Of a DNA stretch of 64,000 nucleotides, positions 2 to 63,688 are shown one piece after another (within the stretch, counting starts at the first letter, position 1; each line of letters begins with the position of its first letter). This DNA comes from Patescibacteria group bacterium (GTDB lineage Bacteria > Patescibacteriota > Patescibacteriia > UBA1558 > GWA2-36-10): contig JAHJQF010000001.1 in the NCBI GenBank assembly GCA_018819405.1, positions 226,097 to 290,096 of the forward strand, written 5' to 3'. The translations under genes were made by a program, and so were the position numbers. The notes below the pieces were generated by a model. It worked only from the letters and a program-made list of their open reading frames with translations. It searched no databases and was not told where the DNA came from.

Positions 2-985
2 GTTTACAGACAAGATAGTAAAATAACTTTGAACAATTCTTCGGACTCTGTCCGTTTGATAAGGCCGGACGGAAAAATTTGGCAGGAAGTAATGTATGAA
101 AAAATACCGGAAGATAAAACTTATGCCTGGGACATGGAAAACAGCGAATGGTTTGTAGCTAGCCCCACACCAGCTAGTCCAAACTTAAATATCCCAGAAC
201 CGGAAATAATGTACCAGGTTTTGGAAATAAAAAATTTGGAAAAAAATAATGATGTTTTGATACAGGGTGTGGTATTAAATAAGGCGGATAAAAATACGCG
301 CAGTGTTTATCTGGCAGATTTTGACGGAGAAAAAATTAATTTTGCTGAGCTTGTAGAAATTTATAATTATTATAAAGACTGGCCAGCCTTATCAGCTGGT
401 CAAGTGGCTACACTAAGAGGACAAATATCCAATCTTGATGATTTGCCACGGATAAAAATAAAATCAGCTGATCAGATCTGGTCCAATGATCAAAAAATAA
501 ACTTTAAAAAACCAGAGCCAATTAGTACAGATGATTTGGACAGTGATTTTTTGGGTAGTTTTGTCAGCGTCAAAGGAATAGTGGTCAAAAAAAGTGGTAA
601 AAATATTTATTTGTCAACAGAAGAAGGTGGCGAGTCAAACATCAGAGTATATACTACTTTTTCTCTAGCGGATTTGGAAATAAAAAAAGGCAGTGAAGTA
701 ATAGCCTCGGGGATATTGTCAGAAACAGACAGTGGTTTTAAGATGACGCCTTTTACTATTGACGATATTTTGGTATCGCAAGAGGTCTTGGGAGAAAAAA
801 TATCCGAGAGTGTAGACGAAGAAATGAGAATTGTCAGCTCGACAAATCAGGCGGTAGTTGATAATAGAGGCAAGAGTGTAAAAAATATTTTATTTTTATT
901 AATAGTAGCTATTTTTATTTTGGGTTTGATAGCTTTTGTCAAAAAGAAAAGAGCGTCCGGTCTGACCGAACGCTCTCACACGTAG
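2..985 (+). CDS. hypothetical protein with C-terminal hydrophobic membrane anchor followed by KKKR; frame is open to window start so may be 5'-truncated
   Basis: ORF 29..985 starts with TTG; no in-frame stop upstream back to position 2; C-terminus ILFLLIVAIFILGLIAFVKKKR looks like a TM anchor. Confidence 0.45.
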   Translation, partial: VYRQDSKITLNNSSDSVRLIRPDGKIWQEVMYEKIPEDKTYAWDMENSEWFVASPTPASPNLNIPEPEIMYQVLEIKNLEKNNDVLIQGVVLNKADKNTRSVYLADFDGEKINFAELVEIYNYYKDWPALSAGQVATLRGQISNLDDLPRIKIKSADQIWSNDQKINFKKPEPISTDDLDSDFLGSFVSVKGIVVKKSGKNIYLSTEEGGESNIRVYTTFSLADLEIKKGSEVIASGILSETDSGFKMTPFTIDDILVSQEVLGEKISESVDEEMRIVSSTNQAVVDNRGKSVKNILFLLIVAIFILGLIAFVKKKRASGLTERSHT

Positions 986-1542
986 CCTTTGAATTTGGAA
1001 AAGACAAAGGCTAGAGTGTCCCAGAAAAGAAAGAGCCAGAAATTGTCCAGCCTTTTTTGTGATCCGTTTCCATAGGCGGATCGGGCTTTGACAACAGCGA
1101 AACTGTAGTCGCTGTTTTTCCAACGTTTCTTGAAAGTGGCTTTGACACGACGGGCGTGCCAGGGGTGGGCAACAACCACGGCTGTTTGCCAGTCGTGAGC
1201 TTGCATGTGCTTGAGAGATTCTGAAGCGTTGAACCAAGTACGGTCAGCAATTTCATCTAGGAAAACGTTACCAGTAGGCACACCTTTTTCCAGAATGACG
1301 GCTATAGCTCTGGCTTCACTGAGCCCCTTGAAGTGGTAGCCTCCTGAAACAAGGATGTTGCGGCCGTAGCCTTGGGAAAAAAGTTCACGACCTTTGTAGG
1401 CCACTTCTCTGGATGAGGGGCTGGCACTGTAGCCGTCTTTGAATACATCGATTCCGATGCAGATGATTACATCGGCCGGTGTAGGGGGTAGTACGTCGTC
1501 GGTAACAGCAAAACGTCTTTCAAACCACTTCCAGAATTTCAT
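976..1542 (-). CDS. YdcF/SanA (DUF218) family protein; high-GC islet
   Basis: ILVSGG...GLSEARAIAVIL..GVP...FLDEIADRTWFNASES matches DUF218 motifs; AGGAGG SD 9 nt upstream of ATG at 1540-1542; local GC well above backbone. Confidence 0.6.
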   Translation of the reverse strand: MKFWKWFERRFAVTDDVLPPTPADVIICIGIDVFKDGYSASPSSREVAYKGRELFSQGYGRNILVSGGYHFKGLSEARAIAVILEKGVPTGNVFLDEIADRTWFNASESLKHMQAHDWQTAVVVAHPWHARRVKATFKKRWKNSDYSFAVVKARSAYGNGSQKRLDNFWLFLFWDTLAFVFSKFKGYV

Positions 1543-1804
1543 GTCTTTCACCTCCTTTCGAGGTCTGGGAAAATATCAAATAGCGAACTGCTTATACTAA
1601 ATCAAAATATTTAATAAGTCAACTAGTTTGACAAAAAAGCCAATAACTTTTAATATGAAAATATGAGTAATTATTTAATGCACAATTTAGCTTGGTGGAA
1701 AGATTTTAGAAGCTGGCGTATCAGTTGATTTTTTGTGTATTTAAAAAGTTTTTGATATCGTCGGTTTCACAGGCGATTTTTTTATTAATTTAAATTATAA
1801 TAAT

Positions 1805-3004
1805 ATGAATAAAAAATATGATATTAATCCCGATAAAAATGGGTATTTTGGCGAGTATGGTGGTCAGATAATTCCTCCAGAGCTTAAGCCAATTTTTGAT
1901 GAAATAGCTGATTTTTATTTAAAGATAAAAGATGAAAAAGATTTTCAGGATGAATTAAAATATCTTTTAAAAAATTATGTGGGTCGTCCTAGCCCAATTT
2001 ACTATGCTAAAAATCTGACTAAAAAAATAGGTGGCGCCCAAATTTACTTTAAAAGAGAAGATCTCAATCACACTGGTGCGCACAAGATAAATCATACTTT
2101 GGGAGAGGCGCTCATTGCCAAACGCATGGGCAAGAAAAAACTATTAGCCGAGACTGGAGCTGGCCAGCATGGAGTGGCACTAGCCACTGCCGCGGCAGTG
2201 CTTGGTATTCCTTGTGAAATACATATGGGGGAAATTGATATTGCCAAACAAGCTCCCAATGTAATCCGAATGAAAATTTTGGGAGCAAAAGTTGTGCCAG
2301 TTAAGATGGGCACCAAGACACTCAAAGATGCAGTAGACAGCGCTTTTAATGAATTTGTTAAAGATCCACAAAATACATTTTTTGGTATTGGTTCGGTAGT
2401 AGGTCCTCATCCTTTTCCAATGATGGTCAGAGATTTTCAGAGAATAGTAGGAGAGGAAGCCAAAGAACAATTTCAAGATTTAGTCGGCAAGGATCCCGAT
2501 GCTCTGGTTGCTTGCGTGGGAGGAGGTAGTAATGCTATTGGTCTTTTTTCGGCCTATCTAGAAGATGAAAAAATTGATATTTATGGAGTAGAGCCAAGCG
2601 GTCGCTCTCTCAATCCTGGCGATCATGCTGCTACCTTGACTCTGGGCAAGCCGGGAAATATCCATGGCATGTATACTTATTTGCTTCAAGATAAAAAAAG
2701 ACAACCAGAGCCAGTTTACTCAATTGCTTCGGGACTTGATTATCCCGGTGTTGGTCCACAACATAGTTTTTTGAAAGATATCAAAAGGATAAAATATGAA
2801 TTGGCTAGTGATAAAGAATGTCTAGATTCTTTTATGGAGCTGTCAAAATTAGAAGGAATTATTCCGGCTCTAGAAAGCGCTCACGCCGTGGCTTTTGCCA
2901 GGAAGCTGTCCAAGCAGCTAGGTAAAGGAAAAAATATTTTGGTTAATCTTTCTGGTCGGGGAGATAAAGATATAGATTTTGTAGTTAAAAAGTTGGGCAT
3001 TTAA
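1805..3004 (+). CDS. trpB: tryptophan synthase beta chain-like PLP-dependent enzyme (TrpB2 type)
   Basis: [34 protein letters not shown]-terminal GRGDKD; TrpB family signatures. Confidence 0.8.
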
Positions 3005-3022
3005 TTTTTGAATAAAAAATAT

Positions 3023-3062
3023 AGGATAGTAGAATTGCTATTGAGCAACTCTACTATCCTAG
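3023..3062. terminator. bidirectional hairpin between convergent genes
   Basis: aggatagtagaattgc...gcaactctactatcct near-perfect 16-bp inverted repeat. Confidence 0.5.
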
Positions 3063-3070
3063 CAGCTTGG

Positions 3071-3616
3071 CTACTGGTAGTAGCCGACGACGGTCATGTT
3101 GTTGATGAAGTTGGTGTTCTCGACCATCTTGGCGATGGTCAAGCCTAGACTGACGTGCATGTAGTGGTAATTTTTCGAACGAGCCTCGTCAGCATCGTTT
3201 AGCATCCAACAGTTGCTGGTGCTAATCCAGCAGTTGTTTTCTCCGAAGCAAATAGTTTCCCATTTGCGTCCCAAGTCGTCGATAATGCTACGCAGCTCCC
3301 TGGCCACCGCCTGGTTGATGTTGCAGTTCACGTAGAACTGCAGGTAGGCGTCGGTGTTGGTGAAGGCAAACCAGGTGAAGGAGTGTTGCTCTCCGCCGGG
3401 GTCGGTCAGTGTACCAGTGCCGTAGCCGAAGCGGGCGGCAAAGGCCTGCGAGAAGTCCTCGCCGTAACGGCCGAGGAACCAGTCTTCGCATTCGCTGATG
3501 AAATTTTCATCGGGCAGGTTGCTCAGCTTGGGCTGGCCAGGTTGTCCTGACTGAGCTAGGGTCGGCAGGGCGGTCAGCAGTAAGCAGACGACAGTGATGA
3601 AAAAGAGCGACTTCAT
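3071..3616 (-). CDS. secreted Cys-rich hypothetical protein; high-GC islet (~60% GC)
   Basis: Signal peptide MKSLFFITVVCLLLTALPTLAQS; AGGAGG SD 8 nt upstream of ATG; GC composition sharply above flanks. Confidence 0.5.
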   Translation of the reverse strand: MKSLFFITVVCLLLTALPTLAQSGQPGQPKLSNLPDENFISECEDWFLGRYGEDFSQAFAARFGYGTGTLTDPGGEQHSFTWFAFTNTDAYLQFYVNCNINQAVARELRSIIDDLGRKWETICFGENNCWISTSNCWMLNDADEARSKNYHYMHVSLGLTIAKMVENTNFINNMTVVGYYQ

Positions 3617-3792
3617 TGGACATTTCCTCCTGAGAGAGTGGACAGTGACACGGGGGAAATCAGAAAAATATATCATAGTATTATATCACAAAATAACTAA
3701 ATTATCAATATTATAATGATATAAAATTATTGACTAAATAGATATATTATTGTAAAATCAGCTTTGTTATTATTATATAATTTATTTTTTGT

Positions 3793-3879
3793 GCCGGGGT
3801 GGTGGAATTGGTAGACACGCTAGCCTTAGGAGCTAGTATCCGAAAGGGTGTGGAGGTTCGAGTCCTCTCCCCGGTACCA
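3793..3879 (+). tRNA. tRNA-Leu (anticodon TAG), long variable arm
   Basis: Cloverleaf: acceptor gccgggg/ccccggt, anticodon stem ctagc/gctag with loop cttagga, T-loop GGTTCGAGTCC, CCA. Confidence 0.8.
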
Positions 3880-3891
3880 TATTGAAATATT

Positions 3892-3968
3892 GGGTGTGTA
3901 GCTCAGCTGGTTAGAGCGCTACATTGACATTGTAGAGGTCAGAGGTTCGAGTCCTCTCATACCCACCA
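3892..3968 (+). tRNA. tRNA-Val (anticodon GAC)
   Basis: Anticodon stem ctaca/tgtag, loop ttgacat; T-loop GGTTCGAGTCC; CCA end. Confidence 0.8.
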
Positions 3969-4404
3969 TTCGACTCCGTTCTACTTTGCAGAACTTCGCT
4001 TATGGTCTTCGACCATAATAATGCATAGAAAAAGCCAAGGTCAAATGCTCCGATCGTAGTTGGGGGATTATATATAGCAGATATTAGGCAGTCTGTTTTT
4101 TGTTTACAAAAAGAAAAGCTCCAGCCAGTAAATGACATTCCCTGGCTAGAGCTCTTTGTCTCGAAGAGATTTGCTATTTCCCTGTTAGGTCACCCCTTCA
4201 TCTGATACCCCGCTCCTTTTTTATAATCAAGCGCACCATTGCGCTTTGAATCTATATTTTGGATTGGTGTTGTGGATTGTACGCTTATATTTTTAGTATA
4301 GCATAATATATAATTATTTTGTTATTTTGTAAAGGGCTCTTTCTTTACAAACATCCTTATAAATCATATAATATAAGTACTTTTAATAGCTTAAAAATAA
4401 AAAG

Positions 4405-4848
4405 ATGCTAAAAAAGAAAAATAAAAAAGAAGTGGAAATTTTGGAAAACCAGGAGCTTGAAGAGGACGATGCTGATTTTGAAGATGTGGAAGATGTTTAT
4501 GATGATGAGTTGGAGGAAGAAGGACAGCTTTCAGTAGATGTCTATCAAGATAGAAATAATATTTACATCAAATCTACAATTGCTGGTGTGGAGCCAGAAG
4601 ACATAGATATTTCTTTTGACAGTGATATGATCACTATCCGTGGGCAAAGGAGAAAGGATAAGACTATTCACGAGCAGGACTATTTTTATCAAGAATGTTA
4701 TTGGGGTAATTTTTCTCGTTCTATTATATTGCCAGTTGATGTTCAGGAAGACAAGATAGAAGCTACAATTAGAAACGGTGTACTGACTATCACCTTACCT
4801 AAAACCAAAGGTAAAGATATAAACATAAAAGTAAAAGACGAAAATTAA
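4405..4848 (+). CDS. Hsp20/alpha-crystallin family small heat shock protein
   Basis: SVDVYQD..IYIKSTIAGVEPEDIDISFD..ITIRGQRR..GVLTITLPK alpha-crystallin domain. Confidence 0.85.
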   Translation: MLKKKNKKEVEILENQELEEDDADFEDVEDVYDDELEEEGQLSVDVYQDRNNIYIKSTIAGVEPEDIDISFDSDMITIRGQRRKDKTIHEQDYFYQECYWGNFSRSIILPVDVQEDKIEATIRNGVLTITLPKTKGKDINIKVKDEN

Positions 4849-4849
4849 A

Positions 4850-5062
4850 ATGTTGGACAATAAAAAAGTATTTTTTGATCATCAGGATAAGGGCAAAAAT
4901 TTTTTTAGGACAGAATCTGGTCAGGAGATATCTATTGATGCCGCACTTTTTTTCAAAGACTTAAAACAAGGTCAGGAATATTTTTTGTCTTTTAGTGAAA
5001 ATAATTTAGCAGATCAAGAAAGTAAAAAGATTTTGAATGATCTTTTAAATGAAGATGAATAA
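4850..5062 (+). CDS. small hypothetical protein immediately downstream of hsp20
   Basis: 70-aa ORF, 1 nt after hsp20 stop, same strand. Confidence 0.35.
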   Translation: MLDNKKVFFDHQDKGKNFFRTESGQEISIDAALFFKDLKQGQEYFLSFSENNLADQESKKILNDLLNEDE

Positions 5063-5067
5063 TTATT

Positions 5068-6930
5068 ATGGAAAAAAAATTTTTTGATAAACAATCCATC
5101 GTCGCAAAAAAATGGTTATGGATTCCCGTAGCTATTTTTATAATTCTAGTTGGTGGAACTTTTGGAGCCTATGCTTATGTGGAAAATAGCTACCAAGGCA
5201 AGATATTAAAAGGTATATCAGTGGCCGGAGTAGATATTGGTGGTATTACTGTAGATGAAGCCAGAGCCAAGCTGGATAAAAGAATTGATTTTGTAAATAG
5301 CCGTGGCTTTGTTTATAAAGCAAATAATAAAGAAGTGACCATATATCCAAATATTGCAGCTATAGATGGAGCCGACAGTTTAGCTTGGCTGGTATCTTGG
5401 GATGTAGAAAAAACTCTCTTGGAAGTGACTAGTTTCCAAAATGATAAAAGCTTTGGTAACTTTTTTAATAAATTGGCAACCTTGACCAAGGGGCGAGACT
5501 TTCCTATTTATTACAAATGGGATAAGGAGCAAAATCAACAGATACTAGAAAATAGTTTTAAAGAATTACTTTTAGAAAAGAAAGAAGCCAGTTATTTTTT
5601 TGAGGAAGATGGTAGTTTAGGTATTACTCAAGAAAGCATTGGACAAACTTTTGATTATCAGCTAGCTCTAGCAGAGACCAAGGATCAGATACAACAGCTG
5701 ATGAGTAGTCAGATAGACCTTTTGGTGATAGCCGATAAGCCAGCTATTAGCAAAGAGGTGCTTGAAAGATACAAGGATAAAGTAGCCAGCACTTCTAAAC
5801 GAGGAGATTTTTATTTGACTTATGAAGAAAGAGATTGGAATATACCAAATGATATTTGGCGCCAGTGGTTAAGATTAAAACAAGGAGCTAATGATTTTTA
5901 TGTTGGACTGGATAATAATCTTTTTGCTGAATATATAAAAGAAGTTGGTATGAAGGATGAAATAGAAATACCGGTGCAAGATGCAAAGTTTAAGTTGGTA
6001 GATGGTAAGGTAGCAGAGTTTGTCAGCAGTCAAGATGGTCTGACCATAAACTTAGAGGATACTCTAAAATCAATGGAAGGGACTTTGAATAATCCGGGAG
6101 AACTAGAGGTGCCATTTGTGGTAGAGGTAGCCGAATCAAAAGTGGATAATCAAGATGTTAATGATTTGGGAATCGTAGAGATTATCGGCATTGGCGAATC
6201 TGATTTTAGTGGTAGTCCTGTCAATCGTATTCATAATATTAGAGTAGGAGCTGATACTTTGAACGGTATGCTTATAAAACCAGATGAGGAGTTTTCTCTC
6301 ATTACTGCTTTGGGAGAAATTGATGGTGAACATGGTTATAGGCAGGAGCTAGTTATAAAAGGTAATCAAACTATTCCTGAATACGGTGGAGGTCTTTGTC
6401 AAATTGGGACAACCGTTTTTCGAGCAGCTTTAGGTACTGGTTTGCCAATCACCGAAAGAAGAAATCATTCATATCGGGTTTCTTATTATGAGCCAGCAGG
6501 AACTGACGCTACTATCTATAGTCCTTGGCCTGACTTTAAATTTAAAAATGATACAGGCAAACATATTTTAATTCAAACTAGGATAGAGGGTACTAAACTT
6601 TATTTTGATTTTTGGGGAACAGAAGATGGTCGTGTAGCTATTGCTACCGAGCCGGAGATATACAATATAGTAGCTCCACCAGAAAAGAAAATAATAAAAA
6701 CTACTGACCTGGAGCCGGGGCAGACAAAGTGTACAGAAAGGGCTCATTATGGCGCTGACGCCAAATTTAATTATAGTGTCCAGTATCCAGAGCAACCAGA
6801 GCCGGTAGAAACTACTTTTTATAGTCACTATATACCTTGGCAAGAAGTCTGTTTACTCGGGGTGACTGAAGAAGAGCTTTTGGCCGAGCAGCAAGAAAAT
6901 CAGACAGCTACCAGTACTCCAGCTGAATAA
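5068..6930 (+). CDS. VanW family protein (N-terminal TM plus VanW domain)
   Basis: EYGGGLCQIGTTVFRAALGTGLPITERRNHSY VanW core; N-terminal TM helix. Confidence 0.75.
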   Translation: MEKKFFDKQSIVAKKWLWIPVAIFIILVGGTFGAYAYVENSYQGKILKGISVAGVDIGGITVDEARAKLDKRIDFVNSRGFVYKANNKEVTIYPNIAAIDGADSLAWLVSWDVEKTLLEVTSFQNDKSFGNFFNKLATLTKGRDFPIYYKWDKEQNQQILENSFKELLLEKKEASYFFEEDGSLGITQESIGQTFDYQLALAETKDQIQQLMSSQIDLLVIADKPAISKEVLERYKDKVASTSKRGDFYLTYEERDWNIPNDIWRQWLRLKQGANDFYVGLDNNLFAEYIKEVGMKDEIEIPVQDAKFKLVDGKVAEFVSSQDGLTINLEDTLKSMEGTLNNPGELEVPFVVEVAESKVDNQDVNDLGIVEIIGIGESDFSGSPVNRIHNIRVGADTLNGMLIKPDEEFSLITALGEIDGEHGYRQELVIKGNQTIPEYGGGLCQIGTTVFRAALGTGLPITERRNHSYRVSYYEPAGTDATIYSPWPDFKFKNDTGKHILIQTRIEGTKLYFDFWGTEDGRVAIATEPEIYNIVAPPEKKIIKTTDLEPGQTKCTERAHYGADAKFNYSVQYPEQPEPVETTFYSHYIPWQEVCLLGVTEEELLAEQQENQTATSTPAE

Positions 6931-7188
6931 CAATTTTGAAATTATTGCAAACTAAAACCCTGCACCGTATGGTGCAGGGTTAATTTTCTTTATATTTTTA
7001 TGATCTTTATTTCCAGACAACTGTGCCCAAGAAAATCATCTCTGGAAAAAATTGAGCCAGAGCCAAATTTAATCTTAGAGATGATCCCCATGCTTGTCGT
7101 GGACACAGTTGCCTGAAAACACAGATTTTTACTGACCAAAATAATTTACTGACTCTGTAACATGGAATAATAGCACATTTATTTATCT

Positions 7189-7218
7189 TTGTCAAGCCGG
7201 TTAAAATATGCTATAATA
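7189..7218 (+). promoter_or_regulatory. sigma70-like promoter P1 upstream of rpmF (TTGTCA-18-TATAAT)
   Basis: Hexamers and spacing read directly. Confidence 0.5.
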
Positions 7219-7255
7219 AAAGCAGTTTTTTGAAATTTGCCCTGATATTTATTTC

Positions 7256-7284
7256 TTGACTAGAGTAGATTTTTGGGCTATTAT
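7256..7284 (+). promoter_or_regulatory. sigma70-like promoter P2 upstream of rpmF (TTGACT-17-TATTAT)
   Basis: Hexamers and spacing read directly. Confidence 0.5.
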
Positions 7285-7312
7285 CATAGACATTAATTTT
7301 TATAAAACATTT

Positions 7313-7510: not shown

Positions 7511-7511
7511 A

Positions 7512-8375: not shown

Positions 8376-8379
8376 AAAC

Positions 8380-56134: not shown

Positions 56135-56228
56135 ATCCACCTCCTTTCAGCCTCCTAAAAGTATTTGTTAAAGAAACATTAATATATAATCTTAGTTATT
56201 AAATATTCTCTTGTCAATTTAGAGCGAT

Positions 56229-56337: not shown

Positions 56338-56877
56338 TTAATAATTTTTATTACACAGAAATATATTTAAGGCAGCTACACTAATGCCGCAGTTTATTTC
56401 ACCTTTTTCAGTCATATTTTTTACTTTGGCTATTTTTATGTTTTTTATTTCAGAAATATCTTCATCACCCCCTTTAAAGTCTAGGCCTATTTTTGACTTG
56501 TCTAAGTTGGTGGCTAAAAGTACATGAACAAAAGTGTCTTCATGACCAGGAGCAATGAAAAAGCCACCTATTTTTTTTATGTTTTTTGCTTTTAGTCCTG
56601 TTTCTTCAAATAATTCTTTTTTGCCCTCTTTTAAGATATTTTTCCCTTCCATTGAGCCGGCTGGTAATTGCCACACTTTTTTATTTATTGGGTATCTGTA
56701 TTCTTTGGTAAAAAATATAGATTTGTCATCATCTAAAGCTATTATTACTACACCAGAAGATTTTTTCAAAAAACTGTATATCCCTTTTTTACCATTTGGC
56801 CTTATTACAGTATGGTCTTCTATTTTAAACCAGGGGTTTTTATAGGATATTTTTGATTTTATTTTTTTATATCTCAT
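56338..56877 (-). CDS. NUDIX hydrolase (ADP-ribose pyrophosphatase-like)
   Basis: Nudix box GSMEGKNILKEGKKELFEETGL. Confidence 0.75.
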   Translation of the reverse strand: MRYKKIKSKISYKNPWFKIEDHTVIRPNGKKGIYSFLKKSSGVVIIALDDDKSIFFTKEYRYPINKKVWQLPAGSMEGKNILKEGKKELFEETGLKAKNIKKIGGFFIAPGHEDTFVHVLLATNLDKSKIGLDFKGGDEDISEIKNIKIAKVKNMTEKGEINCGISVAALNIFLCNKNY

Positions 56878-56892
56878 ATTTTTATATAAATA

Positions 56893-56927
56893 GTGCTCGG
56901 TATACCATTTGTAGATGTACCGAGCAC
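56893..56927. repeat. simple 12-bp-stem palindrome between cassettes
   Basis: gtgctcggtata-ccatttgtaga-tgtaccgagcac. Confidence 0.5.
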
Positions 56928-56939
56928 AGAATAGTTTTA

Positions 56940-57353
56940 TTACACATGTAATTCTTCATCACAATTTATGCAGCGCAATTTTTTCTTACCAGCCTTTTCA
57001 TCAACTACAGCGTAGAGATGATTACATTGTATACCTCTACGCAAGTGAAAGTGGCTGATCATTGCTCCCATCAGAGCGTAGTTAGCGATATCTAGAAAGT
57101 CTTCTACTATACTTTCATCAGCGATGGTTTCATCATCTGAAAAAAGTCTAGCTAGTTTGTCACGTATCCTTACGAATATTCCTACAACTCCATACTCTAC
57201 AAAAACACTTTTATAGGCGTTATTTTTTTCTATGAAAAGACCCAGTGCTTCTCTCAAAATGGCCTGATACCTTTTGGTCATGGGAGGATCTTCAGGCTTG
57301 GGCAATTCTTTGTCAGCGAACTTCAAGGTGTAGCTGCCTTTTTTCCTAGTCAT
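56940..57353 (-). CDS. hypothetical protein, possible MazG-like all-alpha NTP pyrophosphohydrolase with C-terminal zinc ribbon
   Basis: EALGLFIEKNNAY...ESIVEDFLDIANYALMGAMI resembles MazG EExxE/D helices; CNH...CINC ribbon; low certainty. Confidence 0.3.
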   Translation of the reverse strand: MTRKKGSYTLKFADKELPKPEDPPMTKRYQAILREALGLFIEKNNAYKSVFVEYGVVGIFVRIRDKLARLFSDDETIADESIVEDFLDIANYALMGAMISHFHLRRGIQCNHLYAVVDEKAGKKKLRCINCDEELHV

Positions 57354-57444
57354 TTTTGACTCCCCTTAGCTTGATGGTGGTAGATTATTTAAGGAACTAT
57401 TTCTAGTAAAGTTATACCATTATGCTTAGTGTATGTCAATTTTT

Positions 57445-57479
57445 CAGTCCGCGAATCAGATACGCGGTGTTGGGCGATG
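57445..57479. repeat. cassette-array repeat family, minimal form (element E)
   Basis: cagtccgcgaatcagatacgcggtgttgggcgatg. Confidence 0.65.
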
Positions 57480-57501
57480 TAAAAATAAATTCCTTTTTTA
57501 T

Positions 57502-57840
57502 TTAATTTGTTGCAATTCCAAAGTATAAAAATTTTACATCCAAATCAAATGGATTAGTTTGAAAATGTTTTTCATTTGGTTCAATTGTAATGCAGTCGCC
57601 CTCACTTACTTCTGTTTCATTATTATTGATATTAAAGATAGCCTTACCTGATATAATAAAAAATACCTCATACATTGTATCATGCGCATGACTTTGAGAA
57701 GATTGGCCTGGTTTTAAAATAGCCTTGCTAAATGTCATTAGTTGTGGAATTTCTCCTTTGGCTATTAAAATTTTCTTTTTTATTTCTGGATTATGGGAAA
57801 CACTATCTCCAGGAATATTTTTTATACTTACTATTTTCAT
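57502..57840 (-). CDS. cupin-domain protein
   Basis: HAHDTMYEVFFIISGKA...EVSEGDCITIEPNEKH cupin motifs. Confidence 0.7.
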   Translation of the reverse strand: MKIVSIKNIPGDSVSHNPEIKKKILIAKGEIPQLMTFSKAILKPGQSSQSHAHDTMYEVFFIISGKAIFNINNNETEVSEGDCITIEPNEKHFQTNPFDLDVKFLYFGIATN

Positions 57841-57859
57841 AATATAGGAATTTATTTTT

Positions 57860-57990
57860 ATTTCATCTAACGTTCATGACTATGCGACGTTTGCCAGTGG
57901 TAAAATGCGCTGAAAGCGTACCACTGGCAAATGTGGGAGAATGACTGAGCGAAGCGAAGGAATGAACCGCGTAGTCATTGTTAGGCGATG
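57860..57990. repeat. cassette-array repeat family, long TIR-bounded form (element F)
   Basis: atttcatctaacgttcatgactatgcgacg - perfect 13-bp palindrome tttgccagtggta...taccactggcaaa - ...gaaccgcgtagtcattgttaggcgatg. Confidence 0.7.
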
Positions 57991-58003
57991 TTACTTAAAA
58001 ATT

Positions 58004-58738
58004 TTACTTTATGCACTTAATAAGTAATCTTGCTTTAAAGAATTTTCCAATTATTGGTAAATAACTTATAAAATGAAAAACAGATAAGAGTTTTATATAA
58101 TGGGGCAAATAATAGATTACTATATTTTTGAATCCAACTTTCTCCAATAAATTGATATGTTTTTTTACATTTCTTATCCCAATATGTCCTACCGACTGTT
58201 TTAGAATTCCATTTTTTTTGCATAACTCAAGAAAATAATCCCCATTTGGAGTATGGAGATAGAGCTTCCCGTTTGGCTTTAATGTATTTCGAATGGCTGT
58301 AAAAATAGAAATGAAATCATCGTCATAAACATGTTCACTGAAGTCCATAGAAAAAGCTTGATCGAATTCATTATCGTGTTCTTCTGAAAATTTGATTATA
58401 TCATTACAGTTGAACCGAGTATTTCTAATATTAAGTGCTTTATGTCTTCTTTTTGCAAGATTTATGAATTGTTCTGAAAAATCTACACCAGTATAGGATT
58501 TTACTCTATTGTGAATCAGCTCACCCCAAAGACCATTTCCGCAACCGTATTCGACAACACGAAAATCTGAATTGAATTTAATGGGCTTTAGTAAATTTTC
58601 AAGTCGCTTTTTTTGTCGAAGATAAGTTTTAAAATAGGGATTATTTTCTTCTCCACTATTAATTAACTCCATCCATTTATGGGGTGCATCTAGCTGGTAA
58701 ATATCTTTTAATTGTTTTTTTGATAATTTGTTTTTCAT
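58004..58738 (-). CDS. class I SAM-dependent methyltransferase
   Basis: Motif I VVEYGCGNGLWG; motif post-I/II spacing typical. Confidence 0.75.
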   Translation of the reverse strand: MKNKLSKKQLKDIYQLDAPHKWMELINSGEENNPYFKTYLRQKKRLENLLKPIKFNSDFRVVEYGCGNGLWGELIHNRVKSYTGVDFSEQFINLAKRRHKALNIRNTRFNCNDIIKFSEEHDNEFDQAFSMDFSEHVYDDDFISIFTAIRNTLKPNGKLYLHTPNGDYFLELCKKNGILKQSVGHIGIRNVKKHINLLEKVGFKNIVIYYLPHYIKLLSVFHFISYLPIIGKFFKARLLIKCIK

Positions 58739-58763
58739 TTTAATTGGTTAAAATTTTTAAGTA

Positions 58764-58875
58764 ATTTCATCTATCAGACAAGCGTATGAAAAGTCGTGAA
58801 CGAGTAGCGTGCTACAATTTCTGCGAAGCAGAGCACGCTAGGAGTCGAAGGGTTTGGGTGAGCGGACAAATAAAA
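58764..58875. repeat. cassette-array repeat family, long form
   Basis: atttcatctatcagacaagcgtatgaaaagtcgtgaacgag - tagcgtgct..agcacgcta - ggagtcgaagggtttgggtgagcggacaaataaaattatt. Confidence 0.75.
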
Positions 58876-59415
58876 TTATTCTAAGACATACTCCCAGCCA
58901 GGTTGCCAAGATTTGGTATTTCTCCAATCTTCATCAATAGCTTCTTGCCAAGTTTTCCCTTTAGTTAACACCTCTAAGGCTAATTGAGGAGCTTTGTGTG
59001 CCATGATGGCTATATGTTTATTATTATAGTTTTCTTTCAAAAAGTCCAGAAAGTCTTTTATTCTATCTTCTACATTTTTTAGACTCTCGCCATTAGGAAA
59101 TGGAGTGTCTACATATTTTTTGTAATCAACATTTTTTTCATTAGATTGATTGAAATCTCCATAGTTGCATTCTCGTAATCTTTTATCTTGAGCAATTTCA
59201 TATTTACCTTCAAATCCTAAATTAGCAGAGTCTACCGCTCTTTTTAGGTCTGAACAAAACATAATATCAAATTTTTTATTGGCAACCTGGCTTCCTAAGT
59301 CTTTGGCTTGCTGTATTCCTAATGCTGACAACTCTCCTGGCGCCCAACCAGTGCTGAGATTTTTTTCATTGTCGGCTGTTGTTCCATGAACAAAATATGT
59401 TATTTTTACACTCAT
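58876..59415 (-). CDS. histidine phosphatase superfamily (phosphoglycerate-mutase-like) protein
   Basis: N-terminal ITYFVHGTTADN (RHG-like catalytic motif variant), ...AIMAHKAPQLAL.. Confidence 0.6.
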   Translation of the reverse strand: MSVKITYFVHGTTADNEKNLSTGWAPGELSALGIQQAKDLGSQVANKKFDIMFCSDLKRAVDSANLGFEGKYEIAQDKRLRECNYGDFNQSNEKNVDYKKYVDTPFPNGESLKNVEDRIKDFLDFLKENYNNKHIAIMAHKAPQLALEVLTKGKTWQEAIDEDWRNTKSWQPGWEYVLE

Positions 59416-59427
59416 ATAATTTTATTT

Positions 59428-59461
59428 AGTCCGCGAACCGCATACGTGGTGATAGGTGATG
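59428..59461. repeat. cassette-array repeat family, minimal form
   Basis: agtccgcgaaccgcatacgtggtgataggtgatg. Confidence 0.65.
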
Positions 59462-59578
59462 TACATTTTTTCTTAAACTTTGGAGAATTTTATTTCTTAA
59501 AAGTAGAATTTGATTTTTATCAATTTTGGCGAGGGCGCAGAGGGGGTTAGGGGGTGAATGCGCCCGAGCCGAAAAAGA

Positions 59579-60871
59579 TTATTTTAATAAGTCGTCTAAT
59601 CCACAGGAAAGAAGAGCAGCTTTGTTTAGTAATATTTGTTCTTTTTGATTTAAATTATCAGCAGTCATTCGAATTACTTTAGTAGTTATGATTTCGCCTA
59701 ACATTATATGGTTGGTTTTTTTAAAATATTCTTCAATTTTTTTATAGAATAATTCTGCATATTGCATTAATTTTTCCTGTGAAGGAGGATTACTAGTCCA
59801 GCCATTGCTATTAAATTTAAATAGTTTTTTTATTTTTTCACTAGTTTCAATTAATAAATTTCCTTCGCCGAAATCAATCCAGTAATCACTAATGCGAAGT
59901 ATAATCTTAACTTGTTTATTTTCAGTGGTGTTATACTGATACATAAAAGAGAATATATCTGTATGAAAATCTTGGTATACATTTATTTTTTCGAGAGTAG
60001 TTACCGTGTAGATTTTATATTCTTCTAGTGATCGTAAATAGCTAGTTCGCCAATTAGCAAGCCAATTGTTTATGAATGTTTGATCTATAAATAGAGGTGT
60101 TAAATCTTGTTTCAAGTTATCGTCAGTTTTTTCATTATTTAATATCTTGATAGTTATTTTATTAAAGAGTTCTTTAGGATCAGCAAACTTAATATCTTTC
60201 GCTGCCAGATAGTCTAAATCTGGTATAATTTTTTTTGACATGTACCATAGTAAATCATAAATATCACGTCCTTTTTCTTCATATATACTTTTGTCAACTC
60301 CACGTTGCCCACGTAAAAAAATAGCGGCAATTTTGCTGGCCATAAGAGCCGATAGATTATATGTTTTTATGGCAAAAGAGAATTGGTCTTTATTTTTTGG
60401 TATGTTTTCGGTGACTACTGTTTTAGGAGGAACAAAATGGTTTAAATCAATTTTAATGTGTACTTGTTTAGAGGAGAAATCCAACCCTAACTCTTCACCT
60501 ATATGAAATTTTAGTGTGAGGCCTCTATTGTTAGTAACCCCAATTGTTAGAAAATCAGTGTCAATATTATAAACGTTTTTAAAATGAGCTACGATTTCTT
60601 CCTTTAATTTATCTAAGAAGTCATTTGTGATTGCATGGTCTACTTCGAAATCTAAATCGACCGACATTCTGTTTAGTTCATGACATATGCGAAGTGCAGA
60701 GCCACCATACATAATCCAATCGCTATATTTTGGGTGATGATATATAAAATTTAGTACATAAAATTGTAGCTCTTCTTTTATAGCATTACGTTGCGTCTCC
60801 GCAGTGGCGCCTCCATATGCAGATATTTCTTCTAGCTTTTTTTTAAGCGCTATAATAATTTGATTATTCAT
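59579..60871 (-). CDS. AbiEii/AbiGii-like nucleotidyltransferase toxin (DUF1814), unusually long (430 aa)
   Basis: YGGSALRICHELNRMSVDLDF matches AbiEii GG(T/S)AL...R.S.DLDF motif; overlaps upstream partner gene by 8 nt. Confidence 0.6.
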   Translation of the reverse strand: MNNQIIIALKKKLEEISAYGGATAETQRNAIKEELQFYVLNFIYHHPKYSDWIMYGGSALRICHELNRMSVDLDFEVDHAITNDFLDKLKEEIVAHFKNVYNIDTDFLTIGVTNNRGLTLKFHIGEELGLDFSSKQVHIKIDLNHFVPPKTVVTENIPKNKDQFSFAIKTYNLSALMASKIAAIFLRGQRGVDKSIYEEKGRDIYDLLWYMSKKIIPDLDYLAAKDIKFADPKELFNKITIKILNNEKTDDNLKQDLTPLFIDQTFINNWLANWRTSYLRSLEEYKIYTVTTLEKINVYQDFHTDIFSFMYQYNTTENKQVKIILRISDYWIDFGEGNLLIETSEKIKKLFKFNSNGWTSNPPSQEKLMQYAELFYKKIEEYFKKTNHIMLGEIITTKVIRMTADNLNQKEQILLNKAALLSCGLDDLLK

Positions 60872-61499
60872 GACGTATATAATTATTTATCATTAAGTAG
60901 AATTTATTTTTTTCCTCTTCATCCATTTCATTTATGTCAATACGTAGATCATTAATTATTGAGTCAACATCTTTAATCTTTATGCCTCGGAATTGTTTAG
61001 TTTTGAAGTAAAGTAGATCAAATAGAGCTTTAGATGGAGGGGCAATAAAAAATTCAAACTTATCTTTTATTAAAGAAAAATTTGAGAATAAATCTTTTTT
61101 TAAAGATCGATATGAAAAAGTACCTATCTTAGTTTTGTAGTTTCTAGTGACCTTTGGTGTGACTGATATTGTGGTGTGTATTATTTCAGTAGAAAGATTA
61201 TAATACTGGAGTGCTGTCCACGAGCTTATATAAGATGGTTTTTTAATGATATTAGCAAGGAAGAAAGAATAGGATAGATTATTTTTATTACTATTATAAA
61301 AATGCGTTGATACATATAAGCCCCTTTTGAGAGGAATAATTTCTTTATCTTTTAAGAAGCGACTTATATATGTGTTAAGAGTGCTATCTTTTAGATTGTA
61401 GCTTTTTTCATTTTTGCCTAATTGGTAAATACGCTCTTTACTGAAATATGGTAAAGATTTTAATTCTTCAAGTAGATTGTTTTTTGATTTACGTTTCAT
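60864..61499 (-). CDS. AbiEi-like antitoxin / transcriptional regulator (type IV TA partner)
   Basis: YISSWTALQYYNL resembles AbiEi S.ESAL..HGL motif; N-terminal basic wHTH-like region; operonic with AbiEii-like gene. Confidence 0.5.
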   Translation of the reverse strand: MKRKSKNNLLEELKSLPYFSKERIYQLGKNEKSYNLKDSTLNTYISRFLKDKEIIPLKRGLYVSTHFYNSNKNNLSYSFFLANIIKKPSYISSWTALQYYNLSTEIIHTTISVTPKVTRNYKTKIGTFSYRSLKKDLFSNFSLIKDKFEFFIAPPSKALFDLLYFKTKQFRGIKIKDVDSIINDLRIDINEMDEEEKNKFYLMINNYIRHE

Positions 61500-61663
61500 A
61501 TGTATGACATAATTGTATTATATCTGAAATACCATGTCAATAGATATATATTAATTTGTCTAATATTAGGTAAAATACCATAAACCCCCTAACTAAAATA
61601 AATAAAAATCAAATTCGTATCGTTATCAAAAAAGCTGGTCTAAAACCAGCAAGGAAAAATGTA

Positions 61664-61775
61664 TTTCATCTATCAGACGTGCGTATGCGAAGTCGTGATT
61701 GAGCAAATATGATAAAATTATTTGAAATCATATTTGCGAAAGAACGATTTGGGTGAGCGGACTAAATTATTTGCC
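61664..61775. repeat. cassette-array repeat family, long form
   Basis: atttcatctatcagacgtgcgtatgcgaagtcgtgattgagc - aaatatgat..atcatattt - gcgaaagaacgatttgggtgagcggactaaattatt. Confidence 0.75.
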
Positions 61776-61843
61776 AAGTATTATTAAATGGATGAGAGGA
61801 CGACGGGATGCCGTCCTCTCTAGATTCTTGAGGTACACGATGT

Positions 61844-62083
61844 CTATTTTCCGGAAGACTTAGTAGGCCGATTGGGTATTCGTGATATCTGCCAGAGGCA
61901 GAATGCGGTGCCAAGTACCACCACTGCTACCAACACAGGCAGTACTTTGATACTTTCCAGCAAGTAGGAAAGTACTTGTCCTCGCTGTTCGGCACCCATG
62001 ATTGCCAGTAGCACGATCGTCAAGACGATCAGCGTGCCAAGAAACAGCCAGAAAGGACGGCTACTTTTCTTCTCGGTTTTCAC
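61844..62083 (-). CDS. small hypothetical membrane protein; high-GC
   Basis: 2 TM helices; ~52% GC; between repeat elements. Confidence 0.4.
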   Translation of the reverse strand: MKTEKKSSRPFWLFLGTLIVLTIVLLAIMGAEQRGQVLSYLLESIKVLPVLVAVVVLGTAFCLWQISRIPNRPTKSSGK

Positions 62084-62165
62084 CTCGTTACCTCCTAGTT
62101 GAAGAACAGTGACTTTAGCTCACTTTTAAAGTATATTTCAAATTTATTTATAGGGCAAATAATTT

Positions 62166-62199
62166 AGTCCGCGAACCGCATACGCGGTGTTGTGCGATC
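62166..62199. repeat. cassette-array repeat family, minimal form
   Basis: agtccgcgaaccgcatacgcggtgttgtgcgatcg. Confidence 0.7.
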
Positions 62200-62227
62200 G
62201 TGTGATTTGTGTTATTTTAGTAATATT

Positions 62228-62866
62228 ATGGCTTTATTTAAAGGGAAGAAAAAATCCGAATTATCAGTAAAATCTACAAAAATTGCAGTTTTTATAGATG
62301 CAGGAAATTTATGGGAAGTCTATAAAAAAATTGGGAAAATGATTGAAGTTAATAAACTTGAATCTTTTTTCAAAGAAAAATTTTCAGGGGATATTTTCAA
62401 GATTTTTTATTATGTTGCCTATCCAGAAGACGGGACTAGACCTCAGGTGCAGATTGATAAAATTCATAAATTTTTAACATATTTGAAAAAAGGATTGGAA
62501 TTTGAAGTTATAAAAAAACCATTAAAAACAATCAACCTGAGGGATAAAAAAGGAGAGCTTATTTATGATCAAGATACCGGAGAAATAAAAACAAAAGAAA
62601 AGGGTAATCTTGATGTAGAGTTTACGATAGATGTAATTAAATATTCCACAGCATATGATATAGCGGTATTTGTTACTGGTGATTCGGATTTTTTGCCATT
62701 GATTAGTTATTTAAGAAATCTGGGTGGTAAGGCTAAAAAAGTATATATATTTTCTACAGAAGGATGCATATCAAACGAACTCAGGACTGGTGGTGATGGG
62801 TATTTTGATCTTAAAAATTGTGTAGAGATACATGGTTGTGATCTTAAGAATCAAGAGGATAGATAA
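62228..62866 (+). CDS. NYN-domain (LabA-like) protein; inverted (plus-strand) cassette
   Basis: IAVFIDAGNL...IAVFVTGDSDFLPLISYLRNLGGKAKKVYIFS NYN motifs; followed by hairpin terminator. Confidence 0.65.
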   Translation: MALFKGKKKSELSVKSTKIAVFIDAGNLWEVYKKIGKMIEVNKLESFFKEKFSGDIFKIFYYVAYPEDGTRPQVQIDKIHKFLTYLKKGLEFEVIKKPLKTINLRDKKGELIYDQDTGEIKTKEKGNLDVEFTIDVIKYSTAYDIAVFVTGDSDFLPLISYLRNLGGKAKKVYIFSTEGCISNELRTGGDGYFDLKNCVEIHGCDLKNQEDR

Positions 62867-62897
62867 TAAAGTAAAAAGATAATATAGATATACAAAA

Positions 62898-62926
62898 CAC
62901 CCTCGTGCAGAGCACGAGGGTGTTTC
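62898..62926 (+). terminator. rho-independent terminator
   Basis: acaccctcgtgc-aga-gcacgagggtgt + TTT. Confidence 0.65.
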
Positions 62927-63051
62927 TATGGTGTTTTAACCCCTTAAGTTTTATGGCTAAAACCCAAGGACATTATTAGTTTATATAATATGCCAAAATT
63001 TGTCAATACTTATGAAAAATGGCATAATTTTTAGTCACAAATCACATGTCG

Positions 63052-63188
63052 TACAACAGGCCAGCATTTGCGACGTTGCCGACGAAATAGCCGTGATAAA
63101 ATTATTATATCATCACGGATATTAGGAGGCAATGTAGGTGAAGCGACGAGGCACGAGGAGTGGAACCGCAAATGCGGTGTTGTGTGAT
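63052..63188. repeat. cassette-array repeat family, long TIR form (element H1); contains SD + ATG-TAG mini-frame
   Basis: acaacaggccagcatttgcgacg ... ccgtgat-aaaattattat-atcatcacgg ... aggaggcaatgtag ... ggaaccgcaaatgcggtgttgtgtgat; near-identical to H2. Confidence 0.75.
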
Positions 63189-63313
63189 ATTAAATTTTTC
63201 TTGATTTGATAGGAGCTTGTGTTGACGGAATAAGCGAAATATTATATATTATTATGAAAACCAAAAATTGAGCAATTCAGCTCATTGGTTGTTCTTACAG
63301 AAGGGAGAGCGAG

Positions 63314-63688
63314 ATGATTAAGAATTGGATGCTTTACAGTCTGTGGCTGTTATTGGCCACAACCAACGTCGTGATGATTTCCTATCACACCATTCCTTCG
63401 GCCATGATAGTGGGTCTGTGTGTCGGCGTATTACTAGCCGCAGCTATGGAAGCAGAAAGTCCCACCGAAGCTGGTGATCTTTACCTGGGTTTTGTGGTGA
63501 GCTTCATTTTTGGAGCTTTCGTTTTCCTGAACTTTCTGCTCGGCTGGAACCTGGTCGAAAAGGTGAGTGGCGAATACGCCAAAGAGTTGCACATGGGGAT
63601 ATTGATCCCCTTGAGCTATTTCAGCACCTTGTTGACGGCATCAATTAACAAGTTTTCATCTCTGCATCGTCAGGTGTCTGTCGGATGA
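63314..63688 (+). CDS. hypothetical membrane protein; high-GC; flanked by direct repeats H1/H2
   Basis: 3-4 TM helices; ~52% GC. Confidence 0.45.
   Translation: MIKNWMLYSLWLLLATTNVVMISYHTIPSAMIVGLCVGVLLAAAMEAESPTEAGDLYLGFVVSFIFGAFVFLNFLLGWNLVEKVSGEYAKELHMGILIPLSYFSTLLTASINKFSSLHRQVSVG

Follow-up and report, generated by a model that had tools for sequence, protein, structure and literature searches.

Introduction

How do short, GC-rich genes come to stand one by one among the core genes of an AT-rich bacterial genome, and why does their composition persist? The question is raised by a 64-kb stretch of DNA, referred to here as the window, from a Patescibacteria metagenome-assembled genome (MAG) that consists of a single contig of 1.04 Mb (locus tags KKH39_*). 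The window has a GC content of 37.3% and contains 12 short intervals with 13 genes, called islets in the following and named by the first coordinate of their coding sequence, which are GC-rich and preceded by a strong Shine-Dalgarno (SD) sequence, a signal that is almost absent from the surrounding native genes. The initial annotation took them for repeated small acquisitions from a high-GC donor, possibly the host of an episymbiont. The reading developed here, to which we give about an even chance, is that the islets are accessory genes that stand as autonomous, monocistronic units, that derive from foreign sources of higher GC content, and that differ in age, their GC-rich, SD-led state having been maintained rather than eroded.

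Base Composition, Codon Usage, and Shine-Dalgarno Sequences

All 12 intervals are GC-rich, with a GC content of 0.44-0.59 compared to 0.30-0.41 in their 500-nucleotide (nt) flanks; the backbone lies at ~35-37% GC and not at ~33% as first stated. Third codon positions carry the bulk of the excess, their GC content (GC3) being 0.40-0.77 in the islets and 0.29 +/- 0.05 in ~60 native genes. Third-position C is enriched (0.376 versus 0.152), C-ending codons being two to five times commoner in the islets; TAC, for example, accounts for 83% of its synonymous choices compared to 18% in native genes, TTC for 64% compared to 12%, and ATC for 56% compared to 16%. The encoded proteins are also affected, with Lys, Asn, and Glu at about half their native frequency. 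Both composition and codon usage are atypical of the genome, as would be expected of acquired genes. The list of islets stands as GC-rich and SD-led, islet 55964 being marginal in GC and GC3 (Table 1) and showing weak codon periodicity.

An SD-anti-SD duplex of -6 kcal/mol or below is formed by 12 of the 12 genes with a GC3 of at least 0.45 and by 3 of the 61 others (Fisher p = 2.5e-11), and one of these three is the marginal islet 55964. The remaining 58 of the 61 genes in the native class have no SD, the mean duplex energy being -0.9 kcal/mol, and none was found in front of the ribosomal-protein genes L19, S16, and L32. Every islet SD offers a GGA motif, whereas native genes offer none. The canonical anti-SD CACCUCCUUUCU is retained in the 3' tail of the 16S rRNA, so that the window combines the two features of SD-blind translation, namely native genes that lack an SD and a 16S rRNA that keeps the anti-SD. 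The link between GC-rich genes and the SD is far above chance, and the original observation of strong SDs in islets and mostly none in native genes is confirmed.

Organization of the Islet Units

As predicted from sequence, each islet forms its own monocistronic transcription unit, laid out as a host-type AT-rich promoter, a leader of 40-170 nt that is often C-rich, the SD, a GC-rich open reading frame (ORF), and usually a terminator (Table 1). Promoters that match at least 10 of the 12 positions of TTGACA-N16-18-TATAAT were found 30-220 nt upstream of 11 of the 13 islets, whereas the 67 sites of this quality in the window would lead one to expect ~1.3. Under a strict rule, 9 of the 13 islets are followed by a terminator, and under a relaxed rule 12 are, which supports the view that most islets end in a terminator of their own; the hairpin type is not peculiar to them, however, since native operon ends carry similar GC-rich hairpins (16 of 58 native genes). 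The neighbors are core genes, encoding a TrpB-like PALP protein, SMC, PGI, transketolase, an RluD-like protein, and tRNAs; the Cys-rich unit adjoins tRNA-Leu/Val, and islet 41872 adjoins tRNA-Lys. Around the eight islets outside the 52-64 kb region, a search for array sites and for repeats of inverted or direct orientation at the flanks found none.

Table 1. Islet units and related features of the window (coordinates in nt of the window; TM, transmembrane; aa, amino acids)
Feature	Unit or extent	Strand	Coding sequence	Product	GC	GC3	SD	Other signals
YdcF/DUF218	947-1622	-	976-1542	188 aa	0.49	0.52	GAAAGGAGGTGAA	promoter TTGACT-17-TAGTAT; leader; terminator
Cys-rich secreted protein	3014-3708	-	3071-3616	181 aa, signal peptide		0.77	CAGGAGGAAA	promoter TTGATA-17-TATAAT; C-rich leader; terminator
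Candidate small RNA	9140-9330	+						promoter TTGCTA-N17-TATAAT; own terminator
12169, ORFan	12045-12504	+	12169-12450	93 aa		0.67	AAAGGAAAG (weak)	strong terminator
16S rRNA	16082-17567							
16S rRNA 3' tail	17553-17567	+						intact anti-SD GGAUCACCUCCUUUCU, read directly
Lipoprotein	24808-25677	-	24860-25588	242 aa, lipobox LTGC		0.65	GAAGGAGAA	promoter TTGACA-17-TAATAT; C-rich leader (39% C); terminator
23S rRNA	32279-35393							
5S rRNA	35603-35717							
41872, ORFan	41802-42165	-	41872-42090	72 aa	0.59	0.70	GCGAGGAGAAA	promoter and terminator found
46834, small membrane protein	46654-47191	+	46834-47112	92 aa, 2 TM		0.63	duplex -14.7 kcal/mol	leader ~146 nt
48704, ORFan	48498-48984	+	48704-48928	74 aa	0.54	0.57	GTGGAGGAAGA	structured leader ~170 nt, fold -51.6 kcal/mol
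csrA	50253-50629	-	50338-50523	61 aa		0.74	CAGGGAGGA	promoter TTGACA-17-TAAAAT; 71-nt leader; hairpin terminator
52537, small membrane protein	52438-52753	+	52537-52707	56 aa, 2 TM		0.63		perfect promoter TTGACA-17-TATAAT; preceded by repeat D8/D2
52853, membrane protein	52767-53504	+	52853-53458	201 aa, 7 TM				perfect promoter
Array	54903-63975	.		small, mostly minus-strand genes				each gene between alternating inverted sites S and S'
Array sites	54909, 55768, 56228, 57444, 57859, 58763, 59426, 61662, 62164, 63039, 63807; also site region 52314-52393							
55964, marginal islet	55904-56217	-	55964-56134	56 aa	0.44	0.40	double, AGGAGG...AAGGAGGTG	hairpin without T-run; array sites on either side at 55768 and 56228
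61844, mobile module	61573-62198	-	61844-62083	79 aa, 2 TM				short site S 62166-62192; long site S' 61662-61763; 19-bp perfect inverted repeat GCGGACTAAATTATTTGCC
63314, small TM protein	63222-63762	+	63314-63688	124 aa		0.58		gene-less palindromic sites 63035-63205 and 63803-63975 (fold z -3.6 and -4.4)

The emphasis of the initial annotation on tiny membrane or secreted proteins holds for 8 of the 13 products, which have signal-peptide or TM-like segments. Among the islet proteins, only YdcF/DUF218 (PF02698, E 5.9e-16, 59 bits against a curated cutoff of 27.6) and CsrA match Pfam or NCBIfam families. The structural model of the protein from islet 52853 is a 7-TM bundle (pLDDT 94.1) that resembles PQ-loop, SWEET, and KDEL-receptor proteins; Foldseek retrieves cystinosin, the KDEL receptor, and SWEET13 with probabilities of 0.99-1.0 and TM-scores of 0.57-0.61, although the E-values are weak (>= 0.06). 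The lipoprotein model (pLDDT 78.6) has no structural neighbor in the PDB. Furthermore, the leaders of islets 52537 (52470-52536) and 63314 (63250-63313) are homologous, sharing the arrangement AACCAAAAAU-hairpin-UGGUUGU; the shared hairpin shows compensatory changes (GGUCAAUUCUGGCC versus GAGCAAUUCAGCUC), and both leaders are preceded by repeat D8.

Syntenic Orthologues and Persistence of the Islet Composition

Two related contigs carry orthologues of the islets at the same loci. The first, L004 (ENA NODE_30, 37% GC), is syntenic with window positions 1-12 kb, and its native proteins are 78-90% identical in amino acid sequence to those of the window. Its syntenic YdcF orthologue (70% aa identity, GC3 0.47) has a conserved leader and an identical SD, and its syntenic Cys-rich orthologue at 7871-8452 (55% aa identity, GC3 0.85) has a conserved promoter and SD. 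The promoter boxes and SD blocks of the window have been kept in L004, whereas the rest of the leader has diverged. The second contig, L026 (36% GC, native aa identity 49-70%), contains the lipoprotein orthologue between PGI and GtrA, with 51% aa identity, a GC3 of 0.44, and the SD GAAAGGTGGT. L004 carries further GC-rich SD-led genes, one of which has an orthologue directly upstream of the window. A recent gain should be absent from the locus in relatives; YdcF, the Cys-rich protein, the lipoprotein, and one further islet are instead present in L004 or L026.

The age of these orthologues can be judged from third bases at four-fold degenerate sites. Pooled over native genes, third-base identity is 43.7% between the window and L004 compared to 29.7% at saturation, and 36.8% compared to 30.3% for L026, indicating that native sites are near or at saturation in both comparisons. 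The islets' own four-fold sites are about as diverged as the native ones, and the syntenic islets are therefore old orthologues rather than recent exchanges. An upper bound on the GC3 that could survive neutral decay was derived under an F81-type process from four-fold sites of conserved residues, with a per-lineage memory of ~0.45 for L004 and 0.31 for L026. Even an ancestor of 100% GC3 should by now have fallen to at most 0.61 and 0.51, respectively. The Cys-rich gene of the window (0.77, p = 3e-6) and its L004 copy (0.85, p = 2e-13) exceed the first of these maxima, and the lipoprotein gene of the window (0.65, p = 8e-6) exceeds the second, so that the decay toward host composition expected under amelioration is not seen in these genes. 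It could be deduced that the high-GC, SD-led state has been maintained, because GC3 exceeds the neutral bound while native synonymous sites have turned over.

The initial annotation had itself named GC-rich homologues in AT-rich relatives as the observation that would speak against transfer. Such copies, GC-elevated and SD-led in AT-rich (36-37% GC) Patescibacteria, exist for YdcF, the Cys-rich protein, and the lipoprotein, and simple horizontal gene transfer (HGT) is refuted for these three islets as far as the sequence comparison goes.

Right upstream of the -35 box of the Cys-rich unit, a block of ~45 nt (AACAAAGCTGATTTTACAATAATATATCTATTTAGTCAATAA, within 3709-3760) is nearly identical in L004 7720-7775 even though synonymous divergence is saturated, and it may be a regulator-binding site.

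Probable Horizontal Origin of csrA and Some Other Islets

The assignment of islet 50338 as csrA proved sound, with a Pfam CsrA match of E 5e-23 and 81.2 bits (cutoff 27), which covers the full domain (PF02599/TIGR00202), and with 84.3 bits against the NCBIfam equivalog NF002469 (cutoff 73). Identity to the 120 best relatives is 77-88%, and those with a taxon name all belong to Krumholzibacteria or Krumholzibacteriota, one more being named just 'bacterium'. Five fetched loci (82-88% aa and 78% nt identity) have 61-65% GC and place the gene in a native FliW-CsrA flagellar operon, and the GC3 of the relatives, 0.73-0.85, includes that of the window gene. The gene is best explained by transfer from a GC-rich, Krumholzibacteriota-like donor, because its relatives are of Krumholzibacteria type and sit in FliW-CsrA operons at 61-65% GC with a matching GC3. 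The window protein lacks the C-terminal tail of its closest relatives (70-107 aa), and no fliW or flagellar genes were found in the window. The csrA leader (50524-50600, minus strand) holds CAAGGAUG, which we take to be close to the CsrA-binding consensus, in addition to the GGA-containing SD; these motifs suggest autoregulation. Separately, a contig with Krumholzibacteria-type csrA (ENA ERZ27252294) has an accession near that of the window's ENA assembly (ERZ27247117) and a like contig naming; the two may come from one study or habitat, which would fit co-occurrence of donor and recipient.

Islet 61844 provides a second case of movement. Over 630 bp, the module 61573-62198 is 89.2% identical in nucleotide sequence to positions 9886-10510 of L051, a JGI contig of 35% GC, and the neighbors are unrelated. 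One cassette in different array contexts is what cassette mobility predicts, and on this alignment the islet is a mobile module, because a near-identical unit sits among unrelated neighbors in L051.

The distribution of the other families was followed by an exhaustive phmmer search of 1.84 billion representatives, which did not include islet 55964. The 7-TM family of islet 52853 has more than 100 representatives and is patchy; the flanks in its hosts range from 0.36 to 0.67 GC, one clade derives from hosts of 64-67% GC, and the genes are GC-elevated in about half of the AT-rich hosts. The Cys-rich protein and that of islet 46834 have two distant homologues each (35-43% identity for the latter), the lipoprotein has a small homologue family, and islets 61844 and 63314 have close variants only, with variants of 63314 at 93% identity and at a length of 104 aa in other assemblies. 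No homologue was found for 12169, 41872, and 48704. The YdcF subfamily occurs in 14 Genome Taxonomy Database (GTDB) species, nearly all Patescibacteria (Torok-, Kerfeld-, and Doudnabacteria, Paceibacter, and Saccharibacteria); it appears as an islet with SD and terminator at 0.57 GC in four genomes of 0.416 GC (L017, L018, L021, and L023), whereas other copies are at host composition. A distant taxon thus holds the closest homologues of csrA but not those of YdcF. No clusters of at least 90% identity were found outside the source genome, and no relatives of the YdcF and lipoprotein families, the two tested, were found on viral contigs. Collectively, the proposed transfer from a high-GC donor agrees with csrA, the 61844 module, and the patchy 7-TM family, and fails for three islets, namely YdcF, the lipoprotein, and the Cys-rich protein; there is no sign of an actinobacterial or other host as donor, nor of a single donor.

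Proposed Origin and Maintenance of the Islets

Under the preferred reading, that of foreign ancestry of mixed age with a maintained state, an ordinary host-type sigma-70 promoter would drive each unit, and its transcript would begin with a leader of 40-170 nt, often C-rich, followed by an SD able to pair with the intact 16S anti-SD. This pairing would let translation begin on an mRNA that is GC-rich, prone to structure, and devoid of the A/U-rich start region of native genes, and would in this way make the islet mRNAs translatable, while the hairpin terminator would insulate the unit from its neighbors. Capture of the islets would have occurred on separate occasions and in more than one way: csrA would stem from a GC-rich, Krumholzibacteriota-like bacterium, and at least 61844 would have come in as a recombination module flanked by sites, within a cassette-like array, whereas YdcF, the Cys-rich protein, and the lipoprotein would have been resident before the related Patescibacteria lineages diverged. 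The ORFan islets would also be foreign. A gene-class-specific force would then hold the GC-rich, SD-led state. GC3 could be kept high by selection, acting either on the stability or structure of the mRNA or on decoding, by biased gene conversion, or by recurrent replacement of alleles. Of these, selection on properties of the mRNA or of its translation is the most likely, and we infer that selection, and not biased gene conversion, would account for the maintained GC content. Ordinary translational selection is an unlikely cause of the islet codons, because ribosomal-protein genes do not share the islet codon preference.

Several points weigh against this reading. If a maintaining force exists, a high GC3 neither dates nor proves a transfer, which weakens the argument from composition for every islet except csrA and 61844. 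A GC-rich donor lineage is identified for csrA only; the YdcF relatives are nearly all Patescibacteria, with some copies fully at host GC, and an endogenous origin of this gene is possible. For the three islets without homologues, composition is what suggests a foreign origin, and the functional role of the SD is deduced from its conservation. The decay bound assumes an F81-like process and draws on just 37-49 four-fold sites per islet pair, and both the L026 lipoprotein gene (0.44) and the YdcF genes (0.47-0.52) lie within it. In addition, the scope is limited to 64 kb of the 1.04 Mb genome and three relatives.

The most serious alternative, which we nevertheless regard as doubtful, is that the islets form a purely endogenous SD-dependent regulon, without any HGT, in which GC-rich codons are favored for their effect on the stability or structure of the mRNA or on the rate of translation. 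That syntenic orthologues have long kept GC3, SD, and promoter is consistent with it, as is the absence of SDs from native genes in a genome that keeps the anti-SD, a situation also found in Bacteroidia (PMC7797042, PMC9976891, PMC13000453); dedicated regulators may even be at hand in CsrA and a candidate small RNA (sRNA) with an anti-SD-like CACCUCCA. However, csrA is clearly xenologous, the 61844 module moves between arrays, and the families are patchy and include clades from GC-rich hosts. Moreover, the amino acid composition is shifted along with the codons, and the ribosomal-protein genes are without such codon preference.

The explanation of the initial annotation, in which all islets are recent and independent acquisitions from a high-GC donor, perhaps an episymbiont's host, that have not yet ameliorated, is unlikely as a general account. 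It fits csrA and could explain the foreign-looking codon usage and the SD common to all islets, the position of two islets next to tRNA genes, and the mobile module. Against this, four islets have syntenic orthologues in relatives at near or full synonymous saturation, GC3 lies above the neutral decay bound, the YdcF relatives are Patescibacteria, and no cluster of at least 90% identity exists outside the source genome. The spread of islet GC3 from 0.40 to 0.77 does not suggest a single donor, and for YdcF, the Cys-rich protein, and the lipoprotein the explanation is contradicted.

Coding Status and Assembly Integrity

GC-rich islands in AT-rich genomes are often structured non-coding RNAs (ncRNAs), and three islets without a homologue (12169, 41872, and 48704), together with the marginal 55964, might be of this kind. 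Chance ORFs run long in GC-rich DNA, a GC-rich ncRNA candidate is present at 9140-9330, and codon periodicity is missing in islet 55964. Nevertheless, the annotated frame is the sole open frame of six in most islets (a second stop-free frame occurs in 41872, 50338, and 52537), and most islets show coding-type periodicity. The pattern GC1>GC2<GC3 is displayed by 41872 and by 12169, which has a single open frame and values of 0.61/0.33/0.67, while in 48704 GC2 is the lowest although GC3 is below GC1. As the SD is correctly spaced from the start codon in all of them, and none of the islets has an Rfam match, whether at gathering or at E-value thresholds, a non-coding nature is very unlikely.

Public gene calls give several islets over-long starts (201 versus 181 aa; 261 versus 242 aa), the Cys-rich orthologue is overlain by a 293-aa ORF assigned to the wrong strand (L004 7670-8551, minus strand), and islet 12169 is uncalled in the ENA and Logan records. 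The class of GC-rich islets is probably under-annotated in candidate phyla radiation (CPR) genomes.

Finally, the idea that islets are assembly or binning chimeras, GC-rich fragments of other organisms spliced into the contig, has next to no chance of being correct, since the sharp composition borders and the metagenomic origin of the genome that prompt it are outweighed by independent assemblies with the same tested borders, by the coincidence of islet borders with host-type promoters and terminators, and by orthologous islets at matching loci in other genomes. The 1.04 Mb contig was assembled independently in NCBI, ENA, and JGI records, and the three assemblies agree. Logan contig L001 (SRR10598174) covers window positions 24568-25588 with 100% identity across the 3' border of islet 24860; a second, L003 (SRR6514730), covers 3912-16323, with islet 12169 inside 12.4 kb that match the window, and deviates solely at its own 16S-end edge, the strain in that run being identical to the window. 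Chimerism, for which the initial annotation had asked for a check, is excluded at the tested borders because the assemblies of two other runs reproduce them base for base.

Comparison with Known Systems

In Bacteroidia, translation is SD-blind, native starts are A/U-rich and SD-free, and a few regulated genes such as rpsU bear an SD (PMC7797042, PMC9976891, PMC13000453). The window genome similarly keeps the anti-SD, has almost no native SD, and contains a minority of genes with a strong conserved SD, but it belongs to another phylum and its SD-bearing set consists of GC-rich accessory genes rather than a ribosomal-protein gene. Furthermore, the conservation of islet SDs across saturated divergence argues that the SD is read, in contrast to the sequestration of the anti-SD by bS21/bS18/bS6, none of which is encoded in the window.

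Compositionally atypical acquired genes are reportedly described by the amelioration model of Lawrence and Ochman. Islets resemble such genes in their atypical GC, GC3, and codons, their accessory and often envelope-related cargo, their patchy families, and one distant donor (that of csrA). They differ in being single genes of 170-730 bp rather than multi-gene islands, in being GC-rich genes in an AT-rich genome, and in the lack of integrases or direct repeats at most islet sites; in addition, several are ancient at their locus and yet unameliorated, which contradicts the central expectation of the model. The phage 'morons' said to have been described by Hendrix and colleagues are likewise extra single genes between resident genes, unlike the surrounding composition and with their own promoter and terminator, as seen in the islets. 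The islets, however, are conserved across species and are not in a prophage, as indicated by their core-gene neighbors and, for two families, by the lack of viral-contig relatives. As to csrA, the full-length domain match and the FliW-partnered nearest relatives connect it to the CsrA/FliW regulators, whereas the window gene is solitary, encodes only 61 aa in a GC-rich islet, and has no fliW or flagellar genes in the window. What is unusual is the near-perfect link between GC-rich coding sequences and the SD in an otherwise SD-free genome, together with resistance to amelioration; otherwise, the islets are a variant of compositional islets or morons.

The Site-Flanked Array and Other Features

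Islets 55964, 61844, and 63314 are housed in an array that runs off the window end, while 8 of the 13 islets lie outside it. Nearly all of its genes are set apart from the next by one of two alternating kinds of inverted sites, a short site S, GCCCAAC-ACCGCGTATCTGG-TTCGCGGACT (also written CAACACCGCGTATGCGGTTCGCGGACT), and a long site S', AGTCCGC - variable hairpin - CAGATACGC...GTTAGGC. Most sites consist of halves that alternate around genes, and three are gene-less full palindromes of 130-150 nt (single-strand fold z -3.6 to -4.6) with cores ATCTAAC/GTTAGGC. Over the array, the core-like ends are ATCTAAC/GCCCAAC ... GTTAGGC. The cargo is of a kind typical of cassettes and includes NUDIX, cupin, methyltransferase, histidine phosphatase, AbiEii toxin-antitoxin, and NYN genes. 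The same site family occurs in L051 (sites at 1-15300), where a 20-kb stretch holds more than 30 small, mostly same-strand genes, with occasional GC-rich SD-led members; a large serine recombinase lies 4.5 kb past the last site. No recombinase, integron integrase, or Xer gene was seen in the window.

Integron attC sites have the cores RYYYAAC/GTTRRRY, and pdif (XerC/D) modules are known from Acinetobacter plasmids. The array is similar to integron cassettes in that small, same-strand, promoterless-looking genes are separated by imperfect palindromes, the site ends resemble the attC cores, and one module is found in two arrays. However, the window sites alternate as two half-types with every gene between inverted sites, so that, if the sites were read as attC, one gene in two would be located in the loop of a palindrome; moreover, there is no integrase in the window and most islets stand outside the array. 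The alternation of inverted sites is instead reminiscent of pdif modules. Judged from its sequence organization, the array may represent a cassette system of Patescibacteria that has so far not been described, and a full-text literature search returned no description of such arrays in this group.

Several further features of the window were recorded. The rRNA genes are unlinked, with tRNA-Ile, Phe, Pro, and Gly downstream of 16S and the 23S-5S pair 15 kb away; the window holds 11 tRNAs. The 23S match extends over 3115 nt compared to a model of 2925 nt, implying ~190 nt of insertions. A strongly T-rich tandem repeat (37584-37745, AT skew -0.52) with a period of 27 nt, a 54-nt super-unit, and ~6 copies sits in overlapping small ORFs on both strands. 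Three GC-elevated intergenic stretches (35718-36164, 51439-51644, and 3969-4404; GC 0.35-0.44) with hairpins and no ORF or Rfam match may be extra ncRNAs or long untranslated regions.

A Candidate sRNA and Possible Control of the Islets as a Block

Between RNase III and SMC lies a GC-rich non-coding unit of ~185 nt, the candidate sRNA mentioned above. It is conserved at L004 2365-2545 (minus strand), the two sequences giving 9 compensatory base pairs, and has no Rfam match. Its conserved ACACCUCCA / CACCUCCA mimics the 16S anti-SD; this motif is only a lead, because CACCTCC occurs in the window no more often than expected by chance. In L004, a second GC-rich unit of ~330 nt adjoins the counterpart.

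CsrA binds GGA in SD regions. The islets could be controllable as a block, because only their class has GGA/GGAGG at the start site. A bolder reading, which we consider rather unlikely, distinguishes two expression regimes, an AT-rich SD-independent core and a conserved, selectively maintained class of GC-rich, SD-dependent single genes, mostly for envelope proteins, with the tail-less CsrA and the sRNA as candidate controllers.

Conclusions

Anomalies in GC content and codon usage are routinely taken as evidence of recent HGT. Here, one clear transfer (csrA) stands alongside genes that predate species- or family-level splits, and it follows that compositional islets can be stable states rather than just decaying relics. 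Public gene callers mis-call or miss such genes. The link between GC-rich genes and the SD renders two subjects testable, the start of translation in ultra-small episymbionts and the expressibility of foreign genes in them. If the two-regime reading were true, it would amount to a post-transcriptional 'xenogeneic' control of foreign-type genes, combined with a gene-specific resistance to amelioration.

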